Assembly (NCBI GenBank): GCA_020059045.1
Contig: JAGVCW010000021.1
Span: 27,821-91,820 of the forward strand
Direction: 5' to 3'
DNA: 64,000 nt
Source of the DNA: Minisyncoccota bacterium
GTDB lineage: Bacteria; Patescibacteriota; Minisyncoccia; Phycocordibacterales; Zambryskibacteraceae
Shown here: in pieces, positions 2,670 through 61,186 of the stretch
Layout: every line of letters begins with the position of its first letter
Numbering within the stretch: position 1 is the stretch's first letter
Notes under the pieces: generated by a model
The model's database searches: none
The model's input: the letters and a program-made list of their open reading frames with translations, nothing else
What the model was told of the DNA's origin: nothing
Made by a program: the position numbers and the translations under genes

Positions 2670-3125
2670 TTAATCTTTGATAGGAACTTCATCAGTGCTA
2701 CTCGCTCCGAAGATTCGTACGGGGTCTGCATTTTCCTGTCTTGAAAGATTTATCTCGTACTGATACAACAATGTGGGCAAAAGATATTTTTGAAGAAACT
2801 TTGCAAGGAGAGCAAGTTTCTCCTCTGGCGATTTGCCGAATGAATATATTGGCCCCCACAAATCTTCTTCGAAGAAAAGAGTTGCTTCGAAATATTCACT
2901 AGACACTATTGTCTCATGTGCCTTGCCACCTTTCTCATGACCTTCGTGTGTTTTACCATTGAGTTTAAGATGGTTTAGGATAATACCAGTAAGTGCAAAA
3001 AGATAGTCACTCCACTTAAGCTCGCTATGTTCAGTTCCAATCAAAAGCATTTCTCTACTTGCTTTTTCGAGCAGATGCTGCCTCTGCATTTCGCGTCTTT
3101 GCCATGCTGGCATTGTATTCGGCAT
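2670..3125 (-). CDS. Hypothetical protein
   Basis: ORF 2670..3170 (-). ATG at 3125 (MPNTMPAWQ...) is preceded by AAGGAGA SD. Confidence 0.5.
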   Translation of the reverse strand: MPNTMPAWQRREMQRQHLLEKASREMLLIGTEHSELKWSDYLFALTGIILNHLKLNGKTHEGHEKGGKAHETIVSSEYFEATLFFEEDLWGPIYSFGKSPEEKLALLAKFLQKYLLPTLLYQYEINLSRQENADPVRIFGASSTDEVPIKD

Positions 3126-3254
3126 TCGCCTCTCCTTTGGATGTAGGTACTTCTTGATCGAGCCTATCACTCAAGTTTAAAAAAATCAATAAAAAGTTGA
3201 CAAGTATAGAACTTTATTTTACTCTTTCTCATAGAATGAATCCTTGGAGGAAGA

Positions 3255-3722
3255 GTGAAAGGAACGAGGGCAAGCCAGATAGAAGCCAAAGCAAGAAGCT
3301 TGGCAGGTTCAATACACCACCTTCTTGAGCGTGGCGAAGGACTAGTTGTAAATGTCCATATATCGAAACGTGTTAGTTCTCGAATTCAAGTAAGGGACGG
3401 CAGAATGAAATCTACTCGCCGTACGGAAGGACAGTTAGCCAATAGTGAGTGGAAACGTTTATTGAAACTTAGCCACAAGTTGTCTACTCAACTCTGGAAA
3501 GAGAAGGGAATAAATCCTATGTGTGACCTTGTAGCTATGCTTGCCAGAAACGGAAATAAACCTGTTCTGATTGGGAATATATGGACGAATTGGCCCGCTA
3601 GTCTTGGGTTTTGGTCTTTTCGAGATAGATTGAACGCTCTAATTCGTGACGAAGGAATGATGGTTCGTTTGCAGTACCTCAATCGTGACGACAGGCGAGT
3701 TAAATTTTTTAGGGTCAAGTAA
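3255..3722 (+). CDS. Hypothetical basic protein
   Basis: GTG start with GGAGG SD 5 nt upstream. Candidate TTGACA-like promoter at ~3197. Confidence 0.45.
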   Translation: MKGTRASQIEAKARSLAGSIHHLLERGEGLVVNVHISKRVSSRIQVRDGRMKSTRRTEGQLANSEWKRLLKLSHKLSTQLWKEKGINPMCDLVAMLARNGNKPVLIGNIWTNWPASLGFWSFRDRLNALIRDEGMMVRLQYLNRDDRRVKFFRVK

Positions 3723-11397: not shown

Positions 11398-11479
11398 ATA
11401 GGTAGTAGTAAGTAGTACATTTCAGTTGCAGTTCCCCGTTCAAGGTAGTCCACTCAGCACACCTTATGGAGGTATTACC

Positions 11480-12199
11480 ATGGCTAGCAAGAAGAAGCAG
11501 CAGGTAGCAACGAGCCCGGTTCCCAGCATGCAGGCCGCGGTTGCCACGATGGCGGAAGAGGCTCCCGCCGAGAGCAGGCAGTTCTCTTCGAGCCAGCCGA
11601 AGTGGTCCCCGACTCAGTTCATTGAGACCCTGGGGAAGATCAAGGAAGAACTCCCGGCCGCCGTGTCGAACTTCAAGATCGTGAAGAAGATCGTGGGTCT
11701 CGAGATGGACGGCAAGGATGAGATGGCCTTTCGGCAGATGATTCAGCTCGCCGGGGCCGTTGCTACCAAAGCATCCCAGAAGGCGGACGCGGAAGACCCA
11801 TCAAAGGTGTATCTGGATGCCAGGAAGGTCCAGGCTGCGCTCACCGCATGTGAGCGTGCCAATTCCAATCTGGCACGCACCTTCGACAGGTACATCGGGA
11901 ACTGGCGGAAGCGGGCTGACACCATGATGTCGAACGCAAGGCGCAAGGACCCGGACGTGATCGAGCGCGAGAGTGACACAATCGCGGACAACATGGAGGC
12001 ACTGGATGAGGCACTTGAAGGAAAGAAGCCTCGTCAAGAGGTCCTCGAGATCTACAACAGGACCTTCACCCATCTTCGCGAGCTCTCAAAGGAAGCAACG
12101 GCGCTTGCTACTGAAGCTTCGAGGAGAGAGCAGATCGAAACGATCGGCTCACTCGGGGACGACATCCTCGACTCTCTCGCGGAACTCGACAGCATCTAA
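11480..12199 (+). CDS. High-GC hypothetical alpha-helical protein
   Basis: ATG 11480 (MASKKKQQ...) with GGAGG SD. GC ~58% against ~40% in flanks. No recognisable family. Confidence 0.6.
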   Translation: MASKKKQQVATSPVPSMQAAVATMAEEAPAESRQFSSSQPKWSPTQFIETLGKIKEELPAAVSNFKIVKKIVGLEMDGKDEMAFRQMIQLAGAVATKASQKADAEDPSKVYLDARKVQAALTACERANSNLARTFDRYIGNWRKRADTMMSNARRKDPDVIERESDTIADNMEALDEALEGKKPRQEVLEIYNRTFTHLRELSKEATALATEASRREQIETIGSLGDDILDSLAELDSI

Positions 12200-27109: not shown

Positions 27110-27526
27110 TTGTGTAATATTAACTTTATGACAGAAGGATTATCACTAGAACACTTTGAAGAATCTCGACGACAAATAGACCCGCGTCCAACTATAGTTA
27201 ATGCCGAATTTGGAGACGAGTCTTCAGAGCCTGATTTCGAATCTCCATATGTTCCAGTGACTCTCCCAGAGGAAGATCTAAAGGTGGATGCAGCAACAAA
27301 GGAAAAGGAAGAGACGAGTTTCGAGCGAGAAATTCGTGAGAGACAAATTTCACAGCATGCAAATTATGAAATAGAAAGAAGTGGTTTCCAGGCAAGACTC
27401 GATGTACTTAGAGAAAGAGCAGATAATTACAAGAAAGCTGGGATGAGCCCCCACGAACTCGAAGAATCGAATCGAGAATTGAAAGACACAGAACATTTTG
27501 CAAAGTATATTACGCAAATGATCTAA
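27110..27526 (+). CDS. Acidic hypothetical protein
   Basis: 138-aa Glu-rich ORF directly after map. Confidence 0.45.
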   Translation: MCNINFMTEGLSLEHFEESRRQIDPRPTIVNAEFGDESSEPDFESPYVPVTLPEEDLKVDAATKEKEETSFEREIRERQISQHANYEIERSGFQARLDVLRERADNYKKAGMSPHELEESNRELKDTEHFAKYITQMI

Positions 27527-27845
27527 AGGAGTATGTAAGAAAGGTAGGAAAATTTTCTTATGATATTTATTCCTCAAAATCATTTGAAGATTTGGTGGTT
27601 ACAATAGAGCTGTGGGGCGGTTTGCCTACAAGTGAGGCTAAGGGTGGCTTCATGCCGCAAGAAGTTTTTAAACAAAACCTGGAAAAAATAATTTTCCCAA
27701 ATCCAGAGGATAGGGAAAATCTTTTGAATTCAATTTTTGAGGATGGAGAAATTAAACGAAAGATAAGGGTACTTCTTAATAAACCTAAATAGTTTTGCAT
27801 TTGTCTCACATATTCTGTATTATCTGTGTCTAATATTTTTTTGTC

Positions 27846-28457
27846 ATGAATACACCTCAAAAAGAAAGAACATTTGTTTTTGTTAAGCATGATGGAATAC
27901 AGCGCTCTCTTGTGGGAGAAATAATAAAGAGAATAGAGAGAACTGGGCTCAAAATTGTTGCTATGAAGATGTTTGTGCCAGATCGCAAACGTGCGGAGAT
28001 TCATTATGGCAAAAACGACACTTGGTGCGCGGAGAAAGGTCAAATCCAGGTAGAAAATCTAAAAAAGATGGGGATTGAGCCGACTAAGCCTGCAATAGAA
28101 TACGGACGTGACAAAGTAGAAGCAATAATAAATTACATAACAGTTGGACCTGTGATAGCCATGGTGATAGAAGGGAATCAGGCTGTAGGAATAGTGAAAA
28201 AGATTGTTGGGGGAACGGAACCCCTTACATCTGATGTTGGGACCATTCGAGGCGACCTTACACTAGACTCTTATGCTGCAGCAGATAGTGGTGGGGCGGT
28301 TACTAGGGCAGTTAGAAACCTAATGCATTGCACAGGCAAACCAGAGGAAGCAGAAGGGGAGATTAACCTGTGGTTTAAAGAAGATGAGATAATCAATTAT
28401 CGTCTTGTTCAGGAAGCGATTCTTTACGACGTAAATCTAGACGGCATCCTCGAATAA
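27846..28457 (+). CDS. ndk: Nucleoside diphosphate kinase (with insertions)
   Basis: TFVFVKHDGIQRSLVGEIIKRIERTGLKIVAMK..., NLMHCTG active-site region. ~60 aa longer than canonical Ndk. Confidence 0.85.
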   Translation: MNTPQKERTFVFVKHDGIQRSLVGEIIKRIERTGLKIVAMKMFVPDRKRAEIHYGKNDTWCAEKGQIQVENLKKMGIEPTKPAIEYGRDKVEAIINYITVGPVIAMVIEGNQAVGIVKKIVGGTEPLTSDVGTIRGDLTLDSYAAADSGGAVTRAVRNLMHCTGKPEEAEGEINLWFKEDEIINYRLVQEAILYDVNLDGILE

Positions 28458-28482
28458 ATGTTAAACACTCGGTGTTGTACAT
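28458..28482. repeat. Near-palindromic 25-bp motif, copy 1 (ATGTTAAACAC-N-GTGTTGTACAT)
   Basis: Pairs with the copy at 29190-29214. Together they flank the higher-GC gene 28667..29110. Confidence 0.7.
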
Positions 28483-28666
28483 TAACCAACGGTCTACAAA
28501 AAAGCCTTATTTCAAGGCTTTTTTGGTAAGTAAAAACTTCTTGACTTTTCTACTCAGTCTATGGTATAATATTGGTATATCTAGCTCCATTTAGGGTCTG
28601 GGTATGTATTAAAGGAATTGGCACTTAGGCCTCTTCCTCAACCGTTCTTTCCAGTTTGGAGGTCGT

Positions 28667-29110
28667 ATGGAACCCTATTCCAGGCTCCAGTATGTCGTAC
28701 TCGTTCTCTGCAGTGTTATTACTCTCGGGACGATCCTCTTCATGCTCAATCGGCAGTACAAGATAAGAAAGGCGGGTGCATTTCAGGAGATCTTTGGTTT
28801 CAATCCCATGCAAACGTGGGTCGAGACTCCTATGACAAGGCACGAGCGTCAAGATAAAGTCAATCTTGCTCTAGAGCACCTGGCTATGATGCTCTCAGTG
28901 CAGACCCATCTCGCAGGACGTGAGTTTGGGCATCCTCCGACCGCAAAAGGCGTAAAGAAAATGTTCTGGCAGGCGCACAAGATTGCCCGCTCATGGGGAT
29001 ACCAAGTGAGAGGCAGTTGGACTGAGTATCTTGATGTGAATCCTCTGCAATGGTTAGTTCTCGGTCAATCGATCCATGCAGCGACAGTGGCAGCAGCAAA
29101 GAAACCATAA
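28667..29110 (+). CDS. Hypothetical membrane-anchored protein (higher GC)
   Basis: GGAGG SD 5 nt upstream. N-terminal TM helix. Terminator CCCCACCTGTTGGGGTTTTTTT follows. Confidence 0.55.
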   Translation: MEPYSRLQYVVLVLCSVITLGTILFMLNRQYKIRKAGAFQEIFGFNPMQTWVETPMTRHERQDKVNLALEHLAMMLSVQTHLAGREFGHPPTAKGVKKMFWQAHKIARSWGYQVRGSWTEYLDVNPLQWLVLGQSIHAATVAAAKKP

Positions 29111-29129
29111 CCCCATCAGGAGGAGTAAA

Positions 29130-29158
29130 CCCCACCTGTTGGGGTTTTTTTATTTTAG
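29130..29158 (+). terminator. Rho-independent terminator
   Basis: AAACCCCACCTGTTGGGGTTTTTTTATTTT. Confidence 0.65.
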
Positions 29159-29189
29159 AGACGTACAACTTAAGCGATAAGACCATTAA

Positions 29190-29214
29190 ATGTTAAACAC
29201 CGAGTGTTTAACAT
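29190..29214. repeat. Near-palindromic 25-bp motif, copy 2 (ATGTTAAACACCGAGTGTTTAACAT)
   Basis: Perfect 11-bp dyad arms ATGTTAAACAC / GTGTTTAACAT. Confidence 0.7.
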
Positions 29215-29379
29215 ACTACATAAGCTGCATGGTCGGTAAAGCTTTTCATAATGAGGTTTTTGTTTCCTACTGTGCTCTTCACACTTTCCTTATATTGTGT
29301 GAGTAATATAATGTATGAGGGTTATTTGGCATATTATCTAGATTAAAGTAATTTTAAAGGGAGTCCTATATTTCCTCAC

Positions 29380-29495
29380 TTTAATGAAGCCTTCGGGCAT
29401 CTGACAAGTGAGGTTGCGGACACCCACCTGGCAAATAGCTAGGGCAATATGTCCAAGTAACCCACACAAAGAACCCCGTATACGGGATTTTTTGT
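29380..29495 (+). ncRNA. Candidate small structured RNA
   Basis: CCTCACTT...AAGTGAGG stem enclosing a GCC-TTCG-GGC tetraloop hairpin. Ends in CCCGTATACGGGATTTTTTG intrinsic terminator. No plausible ORF on + strand. Confidence 0.3.
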
Positions 29496-31360: not shown

Positions 31361-34300
31361 ATGAAAAAGATTGTCATAGCAGTTATTTTGCTCGCAGTGT
31401 TGCTGTTGTCTGGTCCGATTTCGGCTCAAACCCTAGAAGCACAAACCATAAACGACATGTATGCGGTAGTGTTGTCGCTTCAAAACTTGATTCGTCAGTT
31501 AGTTGCGCTTGTTTCTCAGGGAGGAAATCTTGCGCAAGTTACGAACATAGTCACAGTAACTGGGTCAGTCTCTCCTGTACCAGTAACTCTTGGTGACCAG
31601 GCCAATCTTACATGGGACTCAACTAATACAACATCCTGTCTGCTTGATATAGGTACAGCAAACATAACAGGCCAGGCAGTGTCTGGCACATACACTGTGA
31701 CACCAACAAAGTCGATGGATTATATAGTCAAATGTACTGGATCGACTGGCTCAAAATTCGTAAAAGTCCCAGTAGTCGTGGTGGCAGCCTCAACTCCTTC
31801 CACCCCGTCCACTCCAGCAACTCCTTCCACCCCGTCCACACCATCTACTCCATCTACTCCATCTACACCATCTACACCATCTACACCATCAACACCAGCA
31901 ATTCCAAGTGGTCCAATAGTTTTACCAGATTTACCACAAACCTTTTCCGTGTCGGTTCCAGCTCAAACTGGAACAGTCATCTCAGTTCCGGCCGGGAACG
32001 CTGCAGCTTTTCAAGCGGCACTCAACAGTGCAGTCCTGGGTGATGTGATCGAGCTCCAAGCAGGCTCCACCTACACCGGAACATTTACGTTTCCCAATAA
32101 AACTTCTGGCAGCGGCTGGATTACAGTACGCTCCAGTGCCCACAACAGTCTCCCTCAAGGAATTCGAGTAGACCCCGGGGATGTTTCTAAAATGGCTAAA
32201 ATTATCACTAATGCCGTTGGATCAGGGGGGGCAGCATCAGGTTCTGCTATAATTTTTGCTAATAGTGCTCATCATTATTATCTACTAGGCTTAGAAGTGA
32301 CTGCGGCCACTGCAGCCAAGATTGCCACAGGTCCTACTATCCAGATGGACTTTACTACTCCTCTTTCTAATCAGCCCACGAACATTACACTCGATCGCAT
32401 GTATGTTCACGGTCATTCTAATTTAGACATGACCAGATGTATTCTAGCCAACGGTGCCTACATCGCTGTTATCAATAGTTATGTTTCTGAATGTCACTCT
32501 GGAGCGGATGCTCAAGCCATCGAAGTATGGACTGGATCTGGACCATTTAAATTTGTAAATAACCACCTGGAAGCGTCCGGCGAAAATATCATGTTCGGGG
32601 GTGCAGATCCCAAAGTGCAAGGACTCATTCCGTCGGACGCCGAAATTCGTGGAAATTATATTTATACTCCCATTGCCTGGGGGCCCTCGACTCCGTGGAC
32701 TAGAAAAAACTTATTTGAGACTAAAAATGCGCAAAGAGTACTTCTCGAAGGTAATATTCTAGATGGATCTTGGGCAGATGGGCAAGTGGGGTATGCTATT
32801 GTGCTCAAATCTTCAGATCAAGGAGGTGTTGGCACCGGGTGTACTTGGTGTGCATCAAAAGATATTACCGTAAGGTACAACATTATTCGCAATGCAGCCG
32901 GTACAGTGGATATAAGTGGAAAGCAAAACGCTATCGGTACTGCTCCGGCCCTTACCGAACGAATCCTAATTGAACACAACATTTTTGAAAATATTAATGT
33001 TGCCCCATACACCGGGGCTGCCCGACTGCTTAGTTTTAGCCTCGATGTGCGTGATCTTATATATAGGAATAACACTGTTAATACCACGGGCTATCTTCAG
33101 GGTATGATATTAGTGGGTGGAACTCCATCGAACTCTCTGAGTTTCCCGGGTGTCACAAACTTTGAATACAAGGACAATATCACTCCTTTTGGAGAATTCG
33201 GTATATTTGCCACTAACCTAATCGGGGAAGCCCTTTTTGCTGGCTCGCCAAACATTGCTGGTATCTCTAATTATTCGGGTAACGTGACTTACAACAATAC
33301 GTCAGCAAATAAGTACAATGCAACTACTCATCCCACGACTAAACTTTATTCAAGTTACAGCGCAGCAGTGGCCAGTGGTAAAGGCGCAAATACAGCGGCT
33401 GTGCTTGCGGCTACTAAGAATGCGCAAAACGGCGGAGGCGCTGGGACCCAGCCACCTCCTCCACCTCCTCCACCCCCGCCTAACACAACTGTTCCTACCC
33501 CTCCTTCTCCCGTTGCCATTACAACCTATGTTACACCTCCGGCAAACGGAGAGTCGACGCCTCCTTCTGCGGTAAAAAATTTACGTACTTGGGGAGTGTG
33601 CGACAACATGATCGGAGTTACTTGGGATCACGCTACAGATAATTACGGAGTGGCGGGTTATATTATTTCTCGAGACGGACAACCCTATACTATGACGGTG
33701 AGAAGTAGACCTCTCGGCACAACCGGAGGTGTTCCCAACAATACTGCCACCACCATAAGAAATTGGGTCACTGACTCCGGCCGGCAACCCAACACCTCGC
33801 ATTCTTACTCCGTGCAAGCGTTCGATACCTCCAACAACAAAGGCCCCGTGGCTACTTTCTCTGCCAAGACATCAACGGGCGGTTGTTTTGACCCGACCCC
33901 CCCAGTGCCGATGAATCTTAGACTTACAGGTTCGACATTAAATAGCGCGGGGTTAACTTGGGATCCCGTTACAGATTCCCGTTATAACGTAGTTCAATAT
34001 AGAATATATCTGGATTTTCCGCTCTTTACGCCTTTTCCTTTTCCCGCAGCACCTACATTTATGAATCCTGCTACTCCTCCTTTTGTCTATGGGAATCTTC
34101 CCTCAGCTCCTAGTCACAATTTCTTTGTTTCCTCTCGTAGCAACCTTGGTAAAGAGGGTGACTGGACTATGCCTCTTATTATGACTCCCGGTCAAACCAC
34201 GCCTGCTCCTACCGTGATGCTATCCGCTTCACCAAGCTCTGTGATTCCAGGTGGACAAACAATTCTCACCTGGTCTTCTACTAATGCAACAAGCTGTACC

Positions 34301-35746
34301 GCAAGCGGCGGGTGGTCTGGTTCGCAAGCTTTAGTCGGGACTCTTACAATCACACCCATAACAAGTTCACCATACACACTTTCATGTAGTGGAGCAGGTG
34401 GATCATCAATTAAATCAGTAACGGTTACTGTTGGTGGAATCATACCTCCACCACCAAACCCATTGTTTAGTATAGGAGATAGAGCAGAAACCACAGCTAA
34501 CCTAAATGTTCGATCTGGCCCAAGTGTCGATGCAACAGTTTTTGGTATCCAATCTCTTGGATCACTTGGCACCATTATTGAAGGACCAAGTATAGGTTCA
34601 ATTTACACTTGGTGGAATATTAACTTCGATGCGGGTGTAGATGGATGGAGTGCAGAAAGTTTCCTAAAGAAATCTACCATCTCGACACCACCTCCAGCTA
34701 GTCAACCCGTTGTTACTCTTTCTGTTTCACCTTCCACAATCACTTCTGGTTCGCCAGCAACTCTCACCTGGTCTTCTACTAATGCAACAAGCTGTACTGC
34801 AAGCAGTGGGTGGTCTGGTTCTAAGTCCACGTCTGGTGTGCATGGTATTGCTCCTGCTACAAACACTACGTATACACTCTCATGTAGTGGGGGAGGTGGA
34901 TCGTCAAGTAAATCTGTAACAGTCACAGTAATATCTACTACTCCAACTCCAACACCTAGTGATCCTACGCCTACTGACCCAACCCCGACTCCAACTCCAA
35001 CTCCTACACCTAATCCCGTTCCTACCCCAGGAGATGGCCAGGTATGTGCTCAAGTTGCAACATGGGCTAAAAGTCCATCAGGACAAATTAGGCAGTTCCC
35101 AAGTGCATGTATTCCAAGTGGTTGGGTCGTAATAGCATCTCCACTTATAGAAATTCCTAAAATTCCTACGACTCCAATTCCACCTGTTGGAGAGGTTCCT
35201 ACTATCCCAACAACTGAATCTCCAAGAACAGTTATTACTAAACAGCTTTACTTTGGAGTATCTGATCCCCAAGTTACAGCTCTTCAGATTTTCTTGAGGT
35301 CAAAAGGACTGTATTCAGATGACATTACTGGATTCTTCGGTACAAAAACTCTTCAATCTGTGCGTCTATACCAGACATCAAAGGGGATAGATGCGACAGG
35401 TGCTGTGGGCCCACAAACAAGAGCATCAATATCGGCTGAGACGACAGGTATCACTACGCCATCTACACCAACGACGCAAGCCCCAAGCGCACCTACGACC
35501 GGTTCGCTACCAAGAACACTGTATCGAGGTATATCAGGTAGTGATGTTTCATCTCTACAGACCATACTTATGAACCTGGGATATTACAATGACGAGATTA
35601 CAGGATACTTCGGTGTGAAAACGGAAGCGGCAGTTCAGGCATTCCAGAGAGCAAATGGAATAGTATCTTCAGGTAGTCCTGGTACTACTGGGTATGGGCT
35701 CGCAGGGCAACTAACAAGAGCAAAACTTATTGAACTAAGCCAATAA
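31361..35746 (+). CDS. Giant secreted cell-surface protein with C-terminal peptidoglycan-binding domains
   Basis: Signal peptide MKKIVIAVILLAVLLLSGPISAQT. (STP)n linker, parallel beta-helix/pectate-lyase-like repeats, Pro10 tract, FN3-like, Ig-like (SSTNATSCTASGGWSG), SH3b-like and PT-rich linker modules. Two C-terminal PG_binding_1-like domains (ITGFFG / ITGYFG motifs). 1461 aa. Confidence 0.85.
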   Translation: MKKIVIAVILLAVLLLSGPISAQTLEAQTINDMYAVVLSLQNLIRQLVALVSQGGNLAQVTNIVTVTGSVSPVPVTLGDQANLTWDSTNTTSCLLDIGTANITGQAVSGTYTVTPTKSMDYIVKCTGSTGSKFVKVPVVVVAASTPSTPSTPATPSTPSTPSTPSTPSTPSTPSTPSTPAIPSGPIVLPDLPQTFSVSVPAQTGTVISVPAGNAAAFQAALNSAVLGDVIELQAGSTYTGTFTFPNKTSGSGWITVRSSAHNSLPQGIRVDPGDVSKMAKIITNAVGSGGAASGSAIIFANSAHHYYLLGLEVTAATAAKIATGPTIQMDFTTPLSNQPTNITLDRMYVHGHSNLDMTRCILANGAYIAVINSYVSECHSGADAQAIEVWTGSGPFKFVNNHLEASGENIMFGGADPKVQGLIPSDAEIRGNYIYTPIAWGPSTPWTRKNLFETKNAQRVLLEGNILDGSWADGQVGYAIVLKSSDQGGVGTGCTWCASKDITVRYNIIRNAAGTVDISGKQNAIGTAPALTERILIEHNIFENINVAPYTGAARLLSFSLDVRDLIYRNNTVNTTGYLQGMILVGGTPSNSLSFPGVTNFEYKDNITPFGEFGIFATNLIGEALFAGSPNIAGISNYSGNVTYNNTSANKYNATTHPTTKLYSSYSAAVASGKGANTAAVLAATKNAQNGGGAGTQPPPPPPPPPPNTTVPTPPSPVAITTYVTPPANGESTPPSAVKNLRTWGVCDNMIGVTWDHATDNYGVAGYIISRDGQPYTMTVRSRPLGTTGGVPNNTATTIRNWVTDSGRQPNTSHSYSVQAFDTSNNKGPVATFSAKTSTGGCFDPTPPVPMNLRLTGSTLNSAGLTWDPVTDSRYNVVQYRIYLDFPLFTPFPFPAAPTFMNPATPPFVYGNLPSAPSHNFFVSSRSNLGKEGDWTMPLIMTPGQTTPAPTVMLSASPSSVIPGGQTILTWSSTNATSCTASGGWSGSQALVGTLTITPITSSPYTLSCSGAGGSSIKSVTVTVGGIIPPPPNPLFSIGDRAETTANLNVRSGPSVDATVFGIQSLGSLGTIIEGPSIGSIYTWWNINFDAGVDGWSAESFLKKSTISTPPPASQPVVTLSVSPSTITSGSPATLTWSSTNATSCTASSGWSGSKSTSGVHGIAPATNTTYTLSCSGGGGSSSKSVTVTVISTTPTPTPSDPTPTDPTPTPTPTPTPNPVPTPGDGQVCAQVATWAKSPSGQIRQFPSACIPSGWVVIASPLIEIPKIPTTPIPPVGEVPTIPTTESPRTVITKQLYFGVSDPQVTALQIFLRSKGLYSDDITGFFGTKTLQSVRLYQTSKGIDATGAVGPQTRASISAETTGITTPSTPTTQAPSAPTTGSLPRTLYRGISGSDVSSLQTILMNLGYYNDEITGYFGVKTEAAVQAFQRANGIVSSGSPGTTGYGLAGQLTRAKLIELSQ

Positions 35747-41155: not shown

Positions 41156-41242
41156 CCTGAGGGTGTTTTTGCTATTTCGCTCCCAGGTGGTTTACCACGA
41201 GCGAGCCTTCGACCTGGCTCAGGCCAGGGCGAAGCGAGTCGA

Positions 41243-41678
41243 GTGGAGATGGGCGGAATCGAACCGCCGTGCAATAGAAGAGATGAAAGATTTCTACAAG
41301 AGGTAGTTTGTTTCAATCTGCCTGTTGGCAGATATTTAGACTCTGTAAGTATGGAACAAACAAAATCTTACAAAGTCGAGCTTCTACATTTCGGAAACAA
41401 GCAAAGCAATTTGTTTCCAGAGTCTCAAGTTATTACGCGAGCAACTTGTTATGAGACATCACAAGTGCTAACGTCGCTTAGGCCGACCCAGACACCGAAG
41501 TGTCGGGTTAAGAGGCGTAAACGAAAGCGAAATCCTTAGCTCCAAAATATGGAGAAACTAGAGACCCAGCTTTTGCGACAATGCTGTTTGCAATTATCGG
41601 TTGTGGCGGATTTAAGAGTCACCACAGCTCTCCCTTGCATCTATCAAATGAATTCTACTGTCTAGGCCGATCATCCCC
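41243..41678 (-). ncRNA. ssrA: Transfer-messenger RNA (tmRNA)
   Basis: - strand 5' end GGGGATGATCGGCCTAGACAG matches the tmRNA 5' consensus. 3' end GGCGGTTCGATTCCGCC-CATCTCC-A forms the T-arm and acceptor. Acceptor stem pairs with a G3-U70 wobble, the Ala identity element. Internal candidate tag ORF starts GCA AAC (A-N...). smpB lies 350 bp away. Confidence 0.8.
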
Positions 41679-48801: not shown

Positions 48802-48875
48802 GTCCACCCTCCACGATTTGAACGTGGGACCCTCGAGGTATAAGCTCGATGCTCTAACCAACTGAGCTAAGGGTG
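48802..48875 (-). tRNA. tRNA-Ile, anticodon TAT (UAU)
   Basis: - strand cloverleaf: acceptor CCACCCT/AGGGTGG, D-arm GCTC/GAGC, anticodon arm TCGAG-CTTATAC-CTCGA, T-arm CCACG-TTCAAAT-CGTGG. 74 nt, no encoded CCA. Confidence 0.75.
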
Positions 48876-49053
48876 GTATAGCGCTCAAATACTATATCAA
48901 ATATGGAAATCCTTCAATTATTACAGTCGTGCGGTTAAGTGTCCCAGCTATCCACAACGTGAGTATTCACATTGTTATAACCTAAGGGTATACTTCTAAT
49001 CAAGTTGCGGTCCTGTCTTGAAACCTTATTTATTCTTAACTTCTCTTAATAAT

Positions 49054-52000
49054 ATGTTCTCTAAAAAATTGCCATTAGTAATTGGTTTTGTTTTTGCTTT
49101 TCTTTTTATTGGACTATCTGTAGATGCACAAACTACTTCTCTAAGTTTGACGAGAAACCTAAGTTTTGGTTCTAGCGGCACAGACGTCAGCTCTCTCCAA
49201 CAATTTTTAATATCACAAGGACATTTGTCTTCTGGGAACGCCACAGGTTACTTTGGCCCCTTGACTCAAGCTGCCGTGCAAAGCTTTCAGCGAGCGCAAG
49301 GGATCGTTACTACAGGAACTGTTCAGACAACTGGGTACGGTTTAGTGGGCATACGAACACGTGCAGCCTTGGCTACATTTACGGGAGCTCAAGGCACCTT
49401 TACGCAGAATGCTACTATTGGTACTACTTTTAATACCGCAGTTTCTACGACTCTACCCCCGACCGTGGATCTAAAAGTTAATGGTTCGGATGGGCCTGTC
49501 TTGTTGCCTCCGTCTATTTCGATACAAGCCCACCAACAAGCAAACTTATCCTGGTCCTCGACTAACGCTACCAGTTGTACTGCATCGGGGGGTTGGAGTG
49601 GTACCCAAAAAACTTCAGGCAGTCAGTCATTTAAACCAACAGTAAATACTCTATATATAATTACATGTACAGGATCGGGTGGAAGTGCTAGCGATGAAGT
49701 AACTGTAAATAAAATTGGGGCCCCAAGCTCAAGCATGTTTAATCTCGGGGAAGACGTTGAAACTATTTATAGTAGCGGAAATATTTTTAATTATCCCGCT
49801 CCTGACCCCAGGGGAGGTCAAAGTATGTTTGGCGGTGTAAAAGGTAGAGTTGTTGGGGGTCCAGCGGCAGGCACATGTTGTGGCCATATTTTTTGGCATG
49901 TGGATTATGTAAACGGAATGAAGGGGTGGACCGAAAAAGATAATCTTAAAAAAGCTATCATTAATTCTACCTATACTCTTTCAAATATGGGAGATGTGAT
50001 TGTAACGAAAACCAACTTCACCCAGGCTAAGATAGTTACTTTTACAATGACTGCGATTTCTGGTAAACCCGTAGTATCAGCCGTAATAAGCTCTTCCCTG
50101 CCATCTGGCGTAACAGTCAGTCCTGATCATTATAACTCTGGTAGTCATAACGCTTGTGGCGCAGACCCAAGTGCCGCAGACCCAACTTGTTCGCATAAAC
50201 CTGTTTTTTCCATAGCTAGTAACGCGGCTACCGGAGTCTTCCCAGTTACTCTGACTACTTATGGTCCCAGCGCTCCTACAGAAACCAGCACATTTAATCT
50301 GCATATTCTTCCCGCTGGAACGGCTGTTCCCACCGTATCTCTAAAAGCTAACAACACACCTGGCACACTTTCTATCACTAACGGTACCCAGATCTCTCTC
50401 ACTTGGGACTCAACCAATGTTACGAGTTGTGACCTTAGTGGAGACGGCTGGAGTGGCACAAAATATGCGGCCAAAATGCCAAGTCCAGGATTCTCTGCTA
50501 TACCGCTATCCAATAAAACCACCACATACATTATTATTTGTTCTGATGTTGCCGGCCAAAAGAGCGCGCCGAGCACGGTGGTGGTCACGACCACGGCCGG
50601 TTCTCAAACTAACAAATTTAACCAAAATGATAAGGTTGAAACCAATGCTGATGCTGTAAACGTTCGATCTACGCCGAATGGTAATCCTCCTATAGATTCT
50701 AAAAGCAAAGGAGCTAAGGGCGTGATTATGTGGGATGCTACGACAAGCGCAGGGGGTCATAATTGGTGGGAGATCAACTACGATACAGGAAAAGACGGCT
50801 GGACTGCGGAGCAGTATCTTAATCTTATATTGTCTACAGCTACTCCGCCTCCGCCACCAGGTACCCCAACAGTCGAACTTAAAGCTAATAACACTCTTGG
50901 CTCACTTTCTGTCACTAACGGTACCCAGATTTCTCTCACTTGGGTCTCCACGGATGCTACCGGTTGCGCCCTTAGTGCCAACAGCTGGAGCAGTACGAAC
51001 TTTTCGGCCCAGATGGGAAGTCCAGGATTCACTACTACTCCGTTGTCTAATACCACTACCACTTATACTATCACTTGCTATGATGCAAATGGCGTGAAAA
51101 GTGCACCAAGTACTGTAGTGGTGACAACAACTGGCTCAAGTAATACATTTAAAGACGGAGATACGGTGGAGGTGACAAACACGACCACTTCAGTCAATGT
51201 CCGCTCTTCTGCAAACGGAACAGTAATTGGCACTCAGCCACTTGGGGCTCTAGGATTAATTAAAGGTACAAGTATTAACTCTGGAGGATACGACTGGTGG
51301 AATGTGGATTACGTTCACGCCCCTGACGGCTGGACCGCAGAGCAGTTTCTTCAAAAGAATGCCGGAGGAATCCCAAGTTCCAGCAGAGTGAGTCTTCAAG
51401 CCACTCCAAATTCAGTGGCAGTCAATACCCCTGTTCTCCTTATCTGGGCACTTAGCAACTGGCCCACCAGCAGTCCCACTACTACATGTAATGCGACCGG
51501 TGGCACGGCGGGATGGCCCGGTACAAAATACGGTTTTATGACCGGCGGACAAGCTGTAGTTACTCCTACAACTGCTGGTACTCACACTTTCAACATTGAC
51601 TGTAGCGGTTATAAAGACTCGGTGACTGTGACGGTGACTACTGCGGGTTCAACCAACAAACCTCCAGTCGCGAATGCTGGCCAAGACAAAACAATCACTC
51701 TACCCACGAGCTCCGTTTCTGTGGTGAGCCCTCCAGTCGACGCAACCGATCCTGATGGTTCAAGCGACATAAATACCCATACCTGGTCTTTCGTCTCTGG
51801 TCCTGCTGGTGTTACTCCAGGCATCGCCGCTCCCGGCAACAAGAACAGTACTTTTTCTGGTCTTACTGTTGCAGGTACCTACACTTTCCGCTTCACCGTG
51901 GAAGATAAAGGGGGACTCAGGGCAACCGATGACATGAATGTAGTTGTTTTAACAAGTGGCACGCAGTCATCGGGTCCAGTTGTCGATCTAAAAGCAAATG

Positions 52001-53538
52001 GTTCAAACGGACCAGTAACTCTTTCAAAGGGTGATTCGGTTCAGTTTTCTTGGACGGGATCCAACTTAGTAAATTCTTGTTCCATTAAGGACGAAAATAA
52101 TAGCACTATATCTGGGGGGACAGGACTCAATCCTTTGGGGGGTACTCTCACTCTAGTAAATCTTACTTCTACACACACCTATACAATTACTTGTTTTACA
52201 AGTAACAACAGTACTGCAACTGATAGCGTGACGGTAATTATTTCTGGAGTATTCACAACCCCAGTTGTAGATCTCAAAGCAAATGGCTCAGACAATCCTA
52301 TAACGCTTACTGCGAACCAAGATCTTACTTTGAGTTGGACAATACAAGGAGTGTTACCAACTTGCTCATTGCGTGGTTGGGGAGTGTCCGGCTCTAATTC
52401 ATCTGGCTATGTTGAACTCTCTTCTAAAGTATTAATCGGTTCAGCATTCACTATTACCCCAACTACTGCAGGCTATCCGACTGCTGCTGGCAATATGTAC
52501 GAGATCAACTGTACAGTTTCTGGAGCAGTCACAAAGTACGATCGAGTAATAGTGACGGCAGCAGCGGTAACACCTCCAGGAGGAGGGACTACTGCATCTC
52601 CAGTAGTAACTTTATCTGCTAGTTCTGGCTCTGTAGCCGATGGTCAATCTGTTGCTCTGACTCTCACTTCTCAAAACGCTACTTACTGCACAGGAAATGT
52701 TTTTTCTGACAACAGAACTTCTGGCACGGCATATGTTGTTCCTCCCTTTGGCGGAAATACTAGCGTGGGCTACTCTGTAATATGTTACAACGGTCTTGGC
52801 GGCCCATCTAAAACTGCCTCCGTAAACGTCACCAAGTCAACGTCTGGAGGCTCACCCTCTAGCGGGGCACCGACACTTGATTTCAAAGCTGATAACTCTA
52901 AGGGGCCACTTTCTGTAGGAACTTCCGGGTCTGTATATCTCAGCTGGTCAACAACAAATGTATCTAGCTGTACGTTGAGTAATGCTGGAATATCGTACGT
53001 TTCACTTCCTAGTGGTTTCTGGAATGCAACTCCAAGTAGCTACACTTCGAAAGTCATATACACTATGAGCTGTACTGGGACAAACGGCGCTTCTATATCA
53101 GAATCAATCACCGTATATCCTGTCTACACTACAGTAAGCGTCAACAGTAGCTATCCTCTACCAAAAACTACTTATACGCTACACAATTCCCAAGACCTTA
53201 ACTTGGCTTGGAGTGCCCCAAATCTTCCAGCAGATGCACACTGTGATCTCACTTCACCTGTTAGTCTTACAAACCCCGCAGGTCAGAAGACCGGATCATG
53301 GAAGTTTACATCTACATCAACAAACTATCCTCCAAACAATGTGAGCAGCTGGTATTCACCTGGAATTGTCTACACTGTTACATGTAGTAATTCTGGCGGC
53401 ATCGTAGGCATGGCCACGGCCAATATTCTTCTTGACCCAAATACTACGAGTCTCAATAGCTCTAGTTCAAACCAACTAGCTGCTATATTTTCAGCCATAC
53501 AAAACATTTTGGCTGAGCTTAGTCTATCTGCTCGGTAG
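49054..53538 (+). CDS. Giant secreted cell-surface protein with N-terminal peptidoglycan-binding domain
   Basis: Signal peptide MFSKKLPLVIGFVFAFLFIGLSVDA (ATG 49054 within ORF 49018..). PG_binding_1-like (GYFGPLTQAAVQSFQRAQGIVTTG). More than 10 Ig-like repeats with SSTNATSCTASGGWSG motif, SH3b-like modules, PKD-like domain. ~1494 aa. Confidence 0.85.
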   Translation: MFSKKLPLVIGFVFAFLFIGLSVDAQTTSLSLTRNLSFGSSGTDVSSLQQFLISQGHLSSGNATGYFGPLTQAAVQSFQRAQGIVTTGTVQTTGYGLVGIRTRAALATFTGAQGTFTQNATIGTTFNTAVSTTLPPTVDLKVNGSDGPVLLPPSISIQAHQQANLSWSSTNATSCTASGGWSGTQKTSGSQSFKPTVNTLYIITCTGSGGSASDEVTVNKIGAPSSSMFNLGEDVETIYSSGNIFNYPAPDPRGGQSMFGGVKGRVVGGPAAGTCCGHIFWHVDYVNGMKGWTEKDNLKKAIINSTYTLSNMGDVIVTKTNFTQAKIVTFTMTAISGKPVVSAVISSSLPSGVTVSPDHYNSGSHNACGADPSAADPTCSHKPVFSIASNAATGVFPVTLTTYGPSAPTETSTFNLHILPAGTAVPTVSLKANNTPGTLSITNGTQISLTWDSTNVTSCDLSGDGWSGTKYAAKMPSPGFSAIPLSNKTTTYIIICSDVAGQKSAPSTVVVTTTAGSQTNKFNQNDKVETNADAVNVRSTPNGNPPIDSKSKGAKGVIMWDATTSAGGHNWWEINYDTGKDGWTAEQYLNLILSTATPPPPPGTPTVELKANNTLGSLSVTNGTQISLTWVSTDATGCALSANSWSSTNFSAQMGSPGFTTTPLSNTTTTYTITCYDANGVKSAPSTVVVTTTGSSNTFKDGDTVEVTNTTTSVNVRSSANGTVIGTQPLGALGLIKGTSINSGGYDWWNVDYVHAPDGWTAEQFLQKNAGGIPSSSRVSLQATPNSVAVNTPVLLIWALSNWPTSSPTTTCNATGGTAGWPGTKYGFMTGGQAVVTPTTAGTHTFNIDCSGYKDSVTVTVTTAGSTNKPPVANAGQDKTITLPTSSVSVVSPPVDATDPDGSSDINTHTWSFVSGPAGVTPGIAAPGNKNSTFSGLTVAGTYTFRFTVEDKGGLRATDDMNVVVLTSGTQSSGPVVDLKANGSNGPVTLSKGDSVQFSWTGSNLVNSCSIKDENNSTISGGTGLNPLGGTLTLVNLTSTHTYTITCFTSNNSTATDSVTVIISGVFTTPVVDLKANGSDNPITLTANQDLTLSWTIQGVLPTCSLRGWGVSGSNSSGYVELSSKVLIGSAFTITPTTAGYPTAAGNMYEINCTVSGAVTKYDRVIVTAAAVTPPGGGTTASPVVTLSASSGSVADGQSVALTLTSQNATYCTGNVFSDNRTSGTAYVVPPFGGNTSVGYSVICYNGLGGPSKTASVNVTKSTSGGSPSSGAPTLDFKADNSKGPLSVGTSGSVYLSWSTTNVSSCTLSNAGISYVSLPSGFWNATPSSYTSKVIYTMSCTGTNGASISESITVYPVYTTVSVNSSYPLPKTTYTLHNSQDLNLAWSAPNLPADAHCDLTSPVSLTNPAGQKTGSWKFTSTSTNYPPNNVSSWYSPGIVYTVTCSNSGGIVGMATANILLDPNTTSLNSSSSNQLAAIFSAIQNILAELSLSAR

Positions 53539-56284: not shown

Positions 56285-57073
56285 TCAAAAACTTAAGAAC
56301 TCAGGTTTCTGTCTAAATGCAGCTGACAAACCGACGGATTTACCGCGGTAGTCGTCGCTATAGCTGGTGATAGCGAGACCTCGATGATCAAAGTCGCCAA
56401 CAGCGACACGGGCACCGAATGAGTCGACATTGATGCAACGAACGTAGATCCCTTCAAACAAGCGCTCATCGGTGGCAAGAAAGTGACCGATTATGGTGTA
56501 AACCATGATCTGAGCAGTCGGGAGTTCCTCGTTTTTTGAAAGGAGTGCCAACTGGCCTTCCAAGGTTTCCCAGACTGAGTTGGGAATTGGTTCCTTGCGG
56601 ACCAACTGCCATGTGGGTATACCTTTGTCTGCCGCGAACGGCAGCTTTTTATACCAGTTCATGCTGTAAAGCAGGGTTTGGTCGGGCAGGTTCTTATCAA
56701 CGCCATGGATGTCGAGAATAGACAGTGGGAAAACTGCAACGAGAATGTGCGTATCCTTACAGGATTCGAGCACACTCTTTTTGAACGGAATTTCGCCGAG
56801 ATCGGAAAGCTGTTGCTTCGTGGCTTTAACCCCGAAGTACTTGATCGCCTCCTCGATACCGAAGAAGTTCCTTCCCATGATCACTCGTGCAAGTATCTGT
56901 GATTCGGAAGGTTCATAACCACCGCTGATCATGAATCGTGCAACTTTTCCCACGAATTCAGGGTCCGTATTGAGGCGGTCGGCGACTTCGTCAGCGTTGT
57001 TCCTGAAAGCCCTCCATAAGCGTTGATTGGCGGCATTGATGTCACCATGGGGGACTTGAGTCCATACTTTCAT
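56285..57073 (-). CDS. Hypothetical protein
   Basis: ATG 57073 (MKVWTQVPHG...) inside ORF 56285..57286. Start uncertain. Confidence 0.45.
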   Translation of the reverse strand: MKVWTQVPHGDINAANQRLWRAFRNNADEVADRLNTDPEFVGKVARFMISGGYEPSESQILARVIMGRNFFGIEEAIKYFGVKATKQQLSDLGEIPFKKSVLESCKDTHILVAVFPLSILDIHGVDKNLPDQTLLYSMNWYKKLPFAADKGIPTWQLVRKEPIPNSVWETLEGQLALLSKNEELPTAQIMVYTIIGHFLATDERLFEGIYVRCINVDSFGARVAVGDFDHRGLAITSYSDDYRGKSVGLSAAFRQKPEFLSF

Positions 57074-57439
57074 GTTTTTCACCTTTTCTGTTAGCCTTTT
57101 TGAAGTTATCTTGAAGGCGACTAGAAAGTGGGAATACGATCCCGGTTTACGTCTTGCCTCGGATGAGACAAGCTTTTTAAGTCCTAATATTTTAAGGCCC
57201 AGAAAGCTTGTCTCACTTGAGTTTTGTATGAAGAGCAGTTGTTTATGTTCTTTTTGTATTATACTATATATGAGCTTAAAAAGCAAGGGCTATTTCCGGC
57301 CTATAAATATGCCGTTTTTTGGTTGTAATATGTCTTGACATGTATGTTATAATATGCTATGTTGCAAGTGGATTCAGCGGTATGTCCTTGGGCAATTTCG
57401 CTTCAGGGGTGAGTCGCTGACCAAAACAAGGAGCTAGGC

Positions 57440-61096: not shown

Positions 61097-61186
61097 TGGC
61101 GGAGAGAGTGGGATTCGAACCCACGGTTCCGGTAAAGGAACGACGGTTTAGTAAACCGTTGATTTAAACCACTCATCCATCTCTCC
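61097..61186 (-). tRNA. Type II tRNA, Ser-like, with anticodon ACT
   Basis: - strand: acceptor GGAGAGA/TCTCTCC, discriminator G, encoded CCA, 3-bp D-stem, anticodon arm ACGGT-TTACTAA-ACCGT, long variable arm GTTCC...GGAAC, T-arm GTGGG-TTCGAAT-CCCAC. Confidence 0.7.

Follow-up and report, generated by a model that had tools for sequence, protein, structure and literature searches.

A REP-like hairpin family linked to a RAYT-like transposase probably bounds an inserted block after ndk in a Minisyncoccota genome

To our knowledge, systems that pair a repetitive extragenic palindromic (REP) element with a REP-associated tyrosine transposase (RAYT) have been characterised almost entirely in Proteobacteria, where the pairing (TnpA_REP and its repeats, the "REPtron") was reportedly described by Nunvar in 2010 and by Ton-Hoang/Messing in 2012 (PDB-code: 4ER8). 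The manner in which REPs spread is still debated. Here we analysed a stretch of 64,000 nucleotides from contig JAGVCW010000021.1 of a Minisyncoccota bacterium (the window), in which two copies of a 25-nt palindrome, pal1 and pal2, bracket a small gene directly after ndk, the gene for nucleoside diphosphate kinase. The original prediction for this locus took the palindromes for the operator pair of a dimeric transcription factor or for the recombination sites of a small cassette. According to our analysis they are probably copies of a REP-like hairpin family that is associated with a RAYT-like HUH/Y1 transposase, and they bound an inserted block of DNA. Definitions of REP elements and of their GTAG- and CGTC-tagged superfamilies are those of Di Nocera 2013 (PMC3733652).

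Both palindromes were confirmed in position and sequence, and pal1 begins 1 nt past the TAA stop codon of ndk (28455-28457):

28458-28482, no strand assigned: palindrome 1 (pal1), ATGTTAAACACTCGGTGTTGTACAT, a REP-like hairpin repeat copy with 2 arm mismatches and the centre TCG.
29190-29214, no strand assigned: palindrome 2 (pal2), ATGTTAAACACCGAGTGTTTAACAT, a REP-like copy with a perfect 11-3-11 dyad, a match to the consensus and the centre CGA.

They are 732 bp apart and are the sole matches in the window at up to 3 mismatches (0.00 expected from 100 dinucleotide shuffles), and they remain the sole copies when the search is loosened to 6 mismatches. The 10-mer half-site alone is not enriched in the window (6 observed vs. 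5.9 expected). Because the centres TCG and CGA are reverse complements of each other, pal1 and pal2 align better when one of them is inverted (26 nt, 92%). As single-stranded DNA (ssDNA) both fold into a hairpin on either strand, with z-scores from -3.5 to -7.6: pal2 reaches -8.9 and -8.6 kcal/mol on the two strands (z -7.6 for the former), and pal1, which has a 2x2 internal loop, -5.4 and -4.9 kcal/mol (z -3.8 for the former).

The two copies belong to a widespread family. Genome and metagenome collections were scanned with the pattern TGTTAAACAC-N3-GTGTTKWACA, which specifies 20 bases, and at least 114 genome stretches and at least 120 metagenome stretches matched; all copy and assembly counts from these scans are lower bounds. 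At least 53 assemblies of the candidate phyla radiation (CPR) carry the palindrome, several of them with 5-10 sites. The family consensus derived from 175 distinct sites is a 23-25-mer, aATGTTAAACAC-CGA/TCG-GTGTTTAACATt, from which pal2 differs at 0 and pal1 at 2 of 25 positions. The unit measures about 25-27 nt and consists of an 11-12-bp stem (ATGTTAAACAC/GTGTTTAACAT) closed by a 3-nt loop, the centre triplet being CGA or TCG in 198 of 260 sites. Past about 27 nt the flanks of the 175 sites are unrelated, with only a weak preference for A/T beyond the stem, and the element is therefore a discrete unit that sits in unrelated DNA. Nearly all matches fall in metagenome-assembled genomes (MAGs) of the Patescibacteria/Parcubacteria type (Nomura-, Kaiser-, Sung-, Zambryski- and Nealsonbacteria, Paceibacterota, Minisyncoccia), a range that is approximate since the titles given to assemblies from binning pipelines, "Candidatus Saccharibacteria" for instance, may be no more than generic labels. 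Three matches outside the CPR (Idiomarina, Shewanella, viral contig) differ from the family in the centre triplet, their arms are imperfect, and they were set aside as chance matches to the degenerate pattern. One CGA-centred copy with overlapping half-sites (L147:4927) lies on a 5.9-kb contig labelled as a Methanosarcinales MAG, and could be either a mis-binned CPR contig or a genuine occurrence outside the CPR.

The recurrent partner of the palindrome is a transposase gene. Many loci contain three palindromes about 500 and 220 bp apart, which in locus L126 lie around and inside an open reading frame (ORF) of 222 aa (2848-3516, minus strand). Homologues of this ORF were detected by tblastn in about 45 of 235 loci, where the palindromes stand 36-63 nt before the start codon, at +169 within the coding sequence (CDS), and at +633 to +725, just past the stop codon; the arrangement that defines a REPtron, a Y1 transposase gene with the repeat on both sides, is thus found throughout these loci. 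The L126 protein matches the Pfam family Y1_Tnp ("Transposase IS200 like") with 40.1 bits, the gathering cutoff being 23. It belongs to a family of at least 1232 clusters at 90% identity from Patescibacteria MAGs, all of them about 220 aa long, assigned to PF01797 and labelled "transposase", in which H89-F-H91 (the HUH motif) and Y149-I-H-x-N-P are invariant. A search of PDB sequences with the family profile reached ISDra2 TnpA at an E-value of 0.008. The AlphaFold model of the transposase (predicted local distance difference test score, pLDDT, 85; predicted template-modelling score 0.83) has as its best fold match in the PDB the E. coli TnpA_REP with its REP hairpin (PDB-code: 4ER8; E-value 1.8e-6), with the TnpA proteins of IS608 and ISDra2 two orders of magnitude behind at about 4e-4. 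The family therefore combines the HUH motif and the catalytic tyrosine with a TnpA_REP-like fold. In most cases seen there is one transposase gene per assembly, and the palindrome-gene-palindrome unit adjoins 43 different neighbour families (67 neighbour ORFs).

The copy at +169 is always present in the RAYT-like gene, in L126 as well as in the approximately 45 loci (for example L143, L150 and L176), and is read in frame as VKH[S/R]VFN; in the model these palindrome-encoded residues make up the sole internal loop of low confidence. Among transposases selected only for the similarity of their proteins, variants such as VKNRAFN occur, and these may go along with variant repeats in the respective genomes. 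Two tandem RAYT-like genes, each with palindromes, were seen in a single assembly, a Kaiserbacteria MAG (L179:202-2051). Upstream of the gene, the variant GTGTTGAACA supplies a TTGAAC box that resembles a -35 element (L092 at about 9385, L140 at about 5539, L037 at about 1498 and L158 at about 4061). In L092 this box lies 17 nt ahead of a TATAAT, and the palindrome overlaps the putative transposase promoter, a layout that suggests autoregulation.

The copies that are not attached to a transposase gene lie mostly outside long ORFs. Using mechanical ORFs rather than gene predictions, 73 of 206 such sites (35%) fall within ORFs of at least 120 aa, compared to 71% of random positions, and 65% fall outside them, compared to 29%; 27 of the 206 are located no more than 10 nt from the 3' end of an ORF. 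Copies inside ORFs translate as VKH[S/R]VFN or LNT[E/R]CLT. The proteins concerned number in the dozens, are unrelated and in some cases measure 700-1000 aa, and homologous proteins carry the peptide at differing positions. At one and the same site, orthologues may even use different frames, VKHSVFN or LNTECLT (L041:433 vs. L033; L080/L169, Fmt-like; L212/L220; L020/L086, RNase HII-like). From the frame differences and the varied positions it follows that the DNA is conserved and not the peptide. Single copies are mobile: three genomes have no palindrome between an ABC-type gene and lepA, and two others have one there, each at a different point. One of these copies lengthens the upstream ORF and the other stands a few nucleotides further along, so that the spacer is directly polymorphic for presence or absence of the repeat. 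The orientation of the loop varies as well at the orthologous site within the transposase CDS, giving a Ser or an Arg codon. Since loops flip this readily among orthologous copies, the inverted orientation of pal1 and pal2 tells little, and we discarded it as a sign of an invertible segment.

How does this family compare to the described systems? As in REP/RAYT systems, a short (20-40 bp) hairpin repeat appears to be dispersed mostly intergenically and often just 3' of genes, the HUH/Y1 transposase gene is usually single-copy with the repeat at both sides, and the best fold match of the transposase is TnpA_REP. Size and hairpin agree; the sites counted amount, as lower bounds, to as many as 10 or more in an assembly, 65% of those away from transposase genes are outside ORFs of at least 120 aa, and the window has only 2 in 64 kb. 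Some copies of REPs, too, are reported to lie within genes (PMC3733652). There are also differences. The CPR repeat has no GTAG or CGTC tag, an AT-rich stem and a 3-nt loop; the protein of about 220 aa has a C-terminal extension and scores 39.1 bits against NCBIfam REP_Tyr_transpos (NF047646), below the equivalog cutoff of 80; and the gene holds a conserved in-frame copy of the repeat. Furthermore, one 23-mer is common to at least 53 CPR species with transposases that share only 45-70% identity, in contrast to classical REPs, which mostly belong to one species each. Of the non-transposase copies about 35% lie in ORFs, and the copies seen amount, as lower bounds, to tens per genome and not hundreds.

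Insertion sequences of the IS200/IS605 type and their hairpin-only derivatives (PATEs; TnpA PDB-codes: 2VJV and 2XM3) share with the CPR system the HUH/Y1 enzyme, the sub-terminal hairpins at both gene ends, the Y1_Tnp match, the fold (matches at about 4e-4) and the occurrence of the hairpin-gene-hairpin unit in many contexts. In the CPR system, however, the left and right hairpins are identical in sequence instead of forming distinct left and right ends, the gene is single-copy and not that of a multi-copy insertion sequence, tnpB is missing, and there are far more solo hairpins than genes. The palindromic elements of Rickettsia (RPEs; Ogata 2000 via PMC3733652) are similar in being in-frame selfish palindromes within functional-looking genes, and the CPR palindrome likewise occupies different positions in homologous proteins. 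RPEs are reported to be 100-150 bp long and have no known dedicated transposase, unlike the CPR unit of 25-27 nt (7-9 residues) with its RAYT-like link.

We compared the ndk region of the window with relatives whose ndk genes are 74-80% identical (L236-L239) and with L113 at about 65% nucleotide identity. In L113, L236, L237 and L238 the gene order is secY-adk-map-ndk-DUF2238-beta-CASP, and the gap between ndk and DUF2238 measures 241-344 nt vs. 1085 nt in the window; none of the four has a palindrome (up to 6 mismatches) or the 147-aa ORF after ndk. L239, a 1.1-kb contig, also lacks a palindrome after ndk, and its downstream sequence differs. A 6S-like RNA is conserved in the short gap of the four syntenic relatives and is found in the window at 29311-29470, and in the alignment similarity to the relatives restarts at about 29258, some 40 nt past pal2. 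With both palindromes and the ORF missing in the relatives, and homology resuming past pal2, the extra DNA therefore spans about 28458-29220, with pal1 first and pal2 last. This block is a lineage-specific insertion bounded by both repeats, which entered after the stop codon of ndk and ahead of the gene for the 6S-like RNA. The features of the locus are as follows:

27846-28457, plus strand: ndk (nucleoside diphosphate kinase; Pfam NDK, 114.6 bits), the gene directly 5' of pal1.
28458-29214, no strand assigned: lineage-specific block of 757 bp, with the two palindromes as its edges, missing in relatives.
28497-28525, no strand assigned: perfect 12-bp hairpin CAAAAAAGCCTT-ATTTC-AAGGCTTTTTTG (100% complementary, and also present in the RNA fold) flanked by an A-run and a T-run.
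28541-28570, plus strand: putative sigma-70-type promoter, TTGACT-18-TATAAT with an extended -10 TG, matching the consensus at 11 of 12 positions and the best site of the region.
28667-29110, plus strand: 147-aa ORF with GGAGG 7 nt before the ATG; its product has a transmembrane helix at the N terminus and a helical domain after it.
29127-29153, plus strand: intrinsic terminator of the 147-aa ORF, an 8-bp stem and then a T-run, from RNA folding (hairpin 29127-29147).
29224-29250, plus strand: candidate for what is left, in decayed form, of the ancestral terminator of ndk, AAGCT-N12-AGCTT and then TTC, opposite the L236 and L238 ndk terminators in the alignment.

The hairpin at 28497-28525, between pal1 and the promoter of the ORF, looks like a bidirectional intrinsic terminator and would now serve ndk. 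The weak hairpin at 29224-29250 might derive from the ancestral one, an assignment made by position alone.

The bracketed gene is as originally described, enriched in GC (0.498 vs. 0.424 for the window) with its own Shine-Dalgarno sequence and terminator. Its GC content at third codon positions (GC3) is 0.534, compared to 0.29-0.41 in 23 of the 26 long genes of the window, while the values for the three positions (0.57/0.39/0.53) resemble those of the other window genes at the first and second; a real coding sequence of foreign origin would look like this. Searches of Pfam and NCBIfam with the protein gave no match, and among 5.8e9 proteins the sole match was this very gene with its start placed at a later ATG. 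A HMMER search over 1.84e9 representatives retrieved one remote homologue, P0122 (E-value 7.5e-4; pairwise BLASTP 3e-12), which has in common with the query the membrane anchor and a C-terminal FWxAHxxAxxxGxxVRxSxTEYL motif. The gene for P0122 (L240:4001-4537), in another small genome, lies within an island of four small membrane-protein ORFs (L240:3283-5313) that is situated between a CorC/CNNM gene and dCTP deaminase genes and has a GC3 of 0.54-0.60 vs. 0.36-0.40 in its neighbours; the adjacent 135-aa ORF shows a similar N-terminal architecture. The single-sequence AlphaFold model of the 147-aa protein is poor (all-helical, pLDDT 50). We conclude that the protein is real and rare and is carried on foreign-looking DNA.

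Two other identities of the block were considered and rejected. Rfam scans by gathering score and by E-value returned only terminator look-alikes there, and a real CDS is favoured over a structured RNA because of the GC pattern over codon positions and the remote protein homologue. The distance of 732 bp between the palindromes is close to the approximately 721 bp of REP-RAYT-REP units; nevertheless, when the block was searched as a decayed transposase gene in six frames by tblastn and with the family hidden Markov model (HMM), at most the 7-residue palindrome peptide was matched.

By analogy with TnpA_REP and IS200/IS605 TnpA, the enzyme would recognise the ssDNA hairpin and cut and join beside it, so we infer that the transposase acts on these hairpins. 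Such an activity would spread the repeat to intergenic DNA and also, which is unusual, to those loops of coding genes that tolerate it. In the window the two copies mark the edges of a block that contains a terminator, a putative strong promoter, the ORF for the membrane protein with its foreign codon composition, and another terminator. That REP-linked recombination brought in or put together this block with both palindromes, through integration at copies of the repeat or recombination between them, we rate at slightly less than an even chance. What speaks for such an origin is that the limits of the block coincide with the sole two copies in 64 kb, two independent landings being unlikely.

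Several observations weigh against the REP/RAYT reading and the link between repeat and block. Besides the absent tag of the described REP superfamilies (PMC3733652), the NCBIfam score and the modest copy numbers, which are lower bounds, no RAYT-like gene or remnant was found in the 64-kb window (tblastn, HMM, six frames). In coding regions the palindrome often substitutes a sequence of equal length and is not a clean insertion, where simple cut-and-paste predicts otherwise; among the copies within housekeeping genes, the one in an AlaRS-like gene replaces 27 nt without added length. The variable DNA beside the transposase genes in the comparison of L140, L037 and L092 consists of ambiguous indels that are not strictly REP-bounded. 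Pairs of palindromes in other genomes bracket ordinary genes (NUDIX, Ham1, DedA). Finally, foreign-looking DNA occurs without the repeat: there is no palindrome near the L240 island, in which the sole homologue of the ORF sits; a second lineage-specific insertion in the window (27110-27845, where the map-ndk gap is 736 nt vs. 33-113 nt in relatives) has neither the palindrome nor another long inverted repeat at its flanks; and two further ORFs of foreign composition (11426-12199, plus strand, and 56285-57286, minus strand) lack palindrome flanks.

These last points also lend themselves to the strongest rival explanation, namely that two REP copies inserted independently on either side of a separately acquired ORF block, so that the bracketing is coincidental. 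Single copies do enter intergenic spacers alone, often 0-10 nt from a stop codon, the gene-poor, non-essential stretch of 1.1 kb would offer insertions ample neutral space within a compact genome, and pal1 and pal2 are not identical, with 2 arm mismatches between them and opposite loop orientations. On the other hand, the 64 kb contain no further copy even when 6 mismatches are allowed, yet pal1 and pal2 lie 732 bp apart with one on each side, and they match the limits of the DNA missing in relatives (the ndk stop codon and the restart of homology about 40 nt past pal2). With so few copies, independent insertions at both borders are improbable (a few per cent, by a rough estimate). Overall, we regard coincidental bracketing as a plausible but doubtful account.

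Could the palindromes be portable recombination sites that are shared among genomes? A segment between two copies would then be cut out, either through the RAYT-like enzyme or because its two flanking palindromes recombine, and would enter another genome at a solo copy, and the 757-bp palindrome-ORF-palindrome block after ndk would be one such cassette, linked to an HUH transposase and functionally like integron cassettes or pdif modules. We consider this unlikely. The cassette half of the original prediction survives in part: the family is tied to a REP-type ssDNA recombinase, the block is missing in relatives and its ORF is of foreign composition, and the repeats may have mobilised the block. 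Like pdif modules (Xer sites of Acinetobacter plasmids) and integron attC cassettes, the window gene lies between two inverted, short, imperfect palindromes and the bracketed DNA is missing in relatives. The palindrome, however, is an 11-3-11 unit of 25 nt, compared to 11-6-11 for dif and R''-L''...L'-R' (57-141 bp) for attC, it has many solo copies, including ones in CDSs, and its recurrent partner is an HUH enzyme, with no tyrosine-recombinase or integrase seen beside the fetched copies. Among the eight ORFs nearest the window palindromes, a Pfam search likewise found no integrase or recombinase family, and an attC or Xer-dif identity was rejected. The arm ATGTTAAA resembles the XerD arm of dif, and GTTAAAC the integron core GTTRRRY; architecture and copy number do not fit either, and both were rejected. 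A miniature inverted-repeat transposable element (70-300 bp, non-coding, multi-copy, with terminal inverted repeats and target-site duplication) was rejected as well, as the window unit is 757 bp long and coding, its ORF is unique among the 5.8e9 proteins, and no duplication was seen at the flanks of the block.

A third explanation is that the hairpins are selected at the RNA level, for stabilisation or processing of mRNA 3' ends or for modulation of translation or termination, with the transposase link being secondary. RNA folding places pal1, as a hairpin, in the transcribed 3' untranslated region of ndk between the stop codon and the terminator hairpin, many copies of the family lie just 3' of ORFs, and REPs of other bacteria are reported as RNA elements 3' of coding regions (PMC3733652). 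At its position 1 nt past the stop, pal1 would add a stable RNA hairpin to this region and might influence ndk expression, while neither palindrome looks like a promoter or terminator by itself. Selection on RNA is nonetheless improbable. The second copy, pal2, follows a terminator and precedes a promoter and is probably little transcribed; copies occur on either side of genes and in CDSs in two reading frames; and identity over 23 nt including the loop, across genomes with 50-75% identical proteins, exceeds the needs of a generic stabilising hairpin.

The operator half of the original prediction, in which a dimeric transcription factor binds both dyads and represses or loops the ORF promoter and perhaps the 6S promoter, is now very improbable. 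The geometry would allow it: the 11-bp dyads are perfect in form, pal1 lies about 60 nt 5' of the -35 element of the ORF and pal2 about 90 nt 5' of the 6S-like promoter, and a protein bound to the upstream copy at transposase genes could regulate them through the overlapped TTGAAC box 17 nt before TATAAT. Operators should be limited to the promoters of a regulon and accompanied by a regulator gene, and neither was found. The scans of the collections yielded many further copies, in CPR genomes and metagenomes, with no tie to the 147-aa gene, and a common motif without such a tie is what the original prediction named as refuting it. The copies occur in unrelated contexts, about a third in CDSs of many unrelated genes, others directly past stop codons or around the transposase gene, and are present or absent at orthologous sites. 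No regulator gene co-occurs and none recurs as a neighbour, the HUH/Y1 transposase being the sole conserved partner. Moreover, the conserved 3-nt centre is asymmetric and may read CGA in one genome and TCG at the orthologous position of another, which fits a hairpin loop better than a duplex spacer.

A DNA-uptake-type or other sequence-drive signal, accruing by biased uptake or gene conversion and not by transposition, would account for the equal-length substitutions in coding regions, as seen with uptake sequences, and for a motif identical across many species, but is scarcely credible given the far too low density (2 copies per 64 kb in the window), the strict hairpin with its conserved loop, the tight geometric linkage to the HUH transposase gene and the clean gains of about 25 nt in intergenic DNA.

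As a REP-like family in tiny, gene-dense CPR genomes, the palindrome offers a compact natural system to study hairpin recognition by HUH enzymes, the spread of their repeats and the influence of such repeats on streamlined genomes. It is unusual in that one 23-mer extends over dozens of species, in-frame copies are tolerated in housekeeping genes, a fixed copy resides within the transposase gene and the upstream copy overlaps the -35 box of that gene. For annotation, the family accounts for the recurrent VKHSVFN/LNTECLT peptide in unrelated CPR proteins, and warns against taking such dyads for operators. A literature search for the motif string and for REP/RAYT systems in CPR bacteria found nothing relevant, in a limited collection that does not by itself prove novelty. 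If true, the portable-site scenario would represent a route of gene exchange in CPR bacteria, of which we found no description in the literature searched.

The neighbourhood of the block has further features. The RNA at 29311-29470 (plus strand) is probably 6S RNA (ssrS), with an Rfam 6S score of 26.4 bits (E-value 0.005) that is under the gathering score of 46.4. Its sequence and its place between ndk and the DUF2238 gene are kept in L113, L236, L237 and L238, its closing stem is conserved with compensatory changes in 5 pairs, and it is preceded by a TATAAT at about 29306 and followed by an intrinsic terminator at 29466-29495. The insertion between map and ndk contains ORFs of 138 aa (27110-27526, acidic, no Pfam match) and 66 aa (27592-27792). 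The two other foreign-composition ORFs of the window have a GC3 of 0.72 (11426-12199) and 0.52 (56285-57286) vs. about 0.35 as typical, and neither has a Pfam match. Rfam matches to ordinary features include tmRNA at 41241-41678 (minus strand, 101.5 bits) and tRNA genes at 48803-48876 and 61100-61186 (both minus strand). Finally, two secreted-looking proteins of 1461 and 1506 aa, encoded at 31361-35746 and 49018-53538 (both plus strand), combine Pro/Thr/Ser-rich linkers with PG_binding_1 domains.

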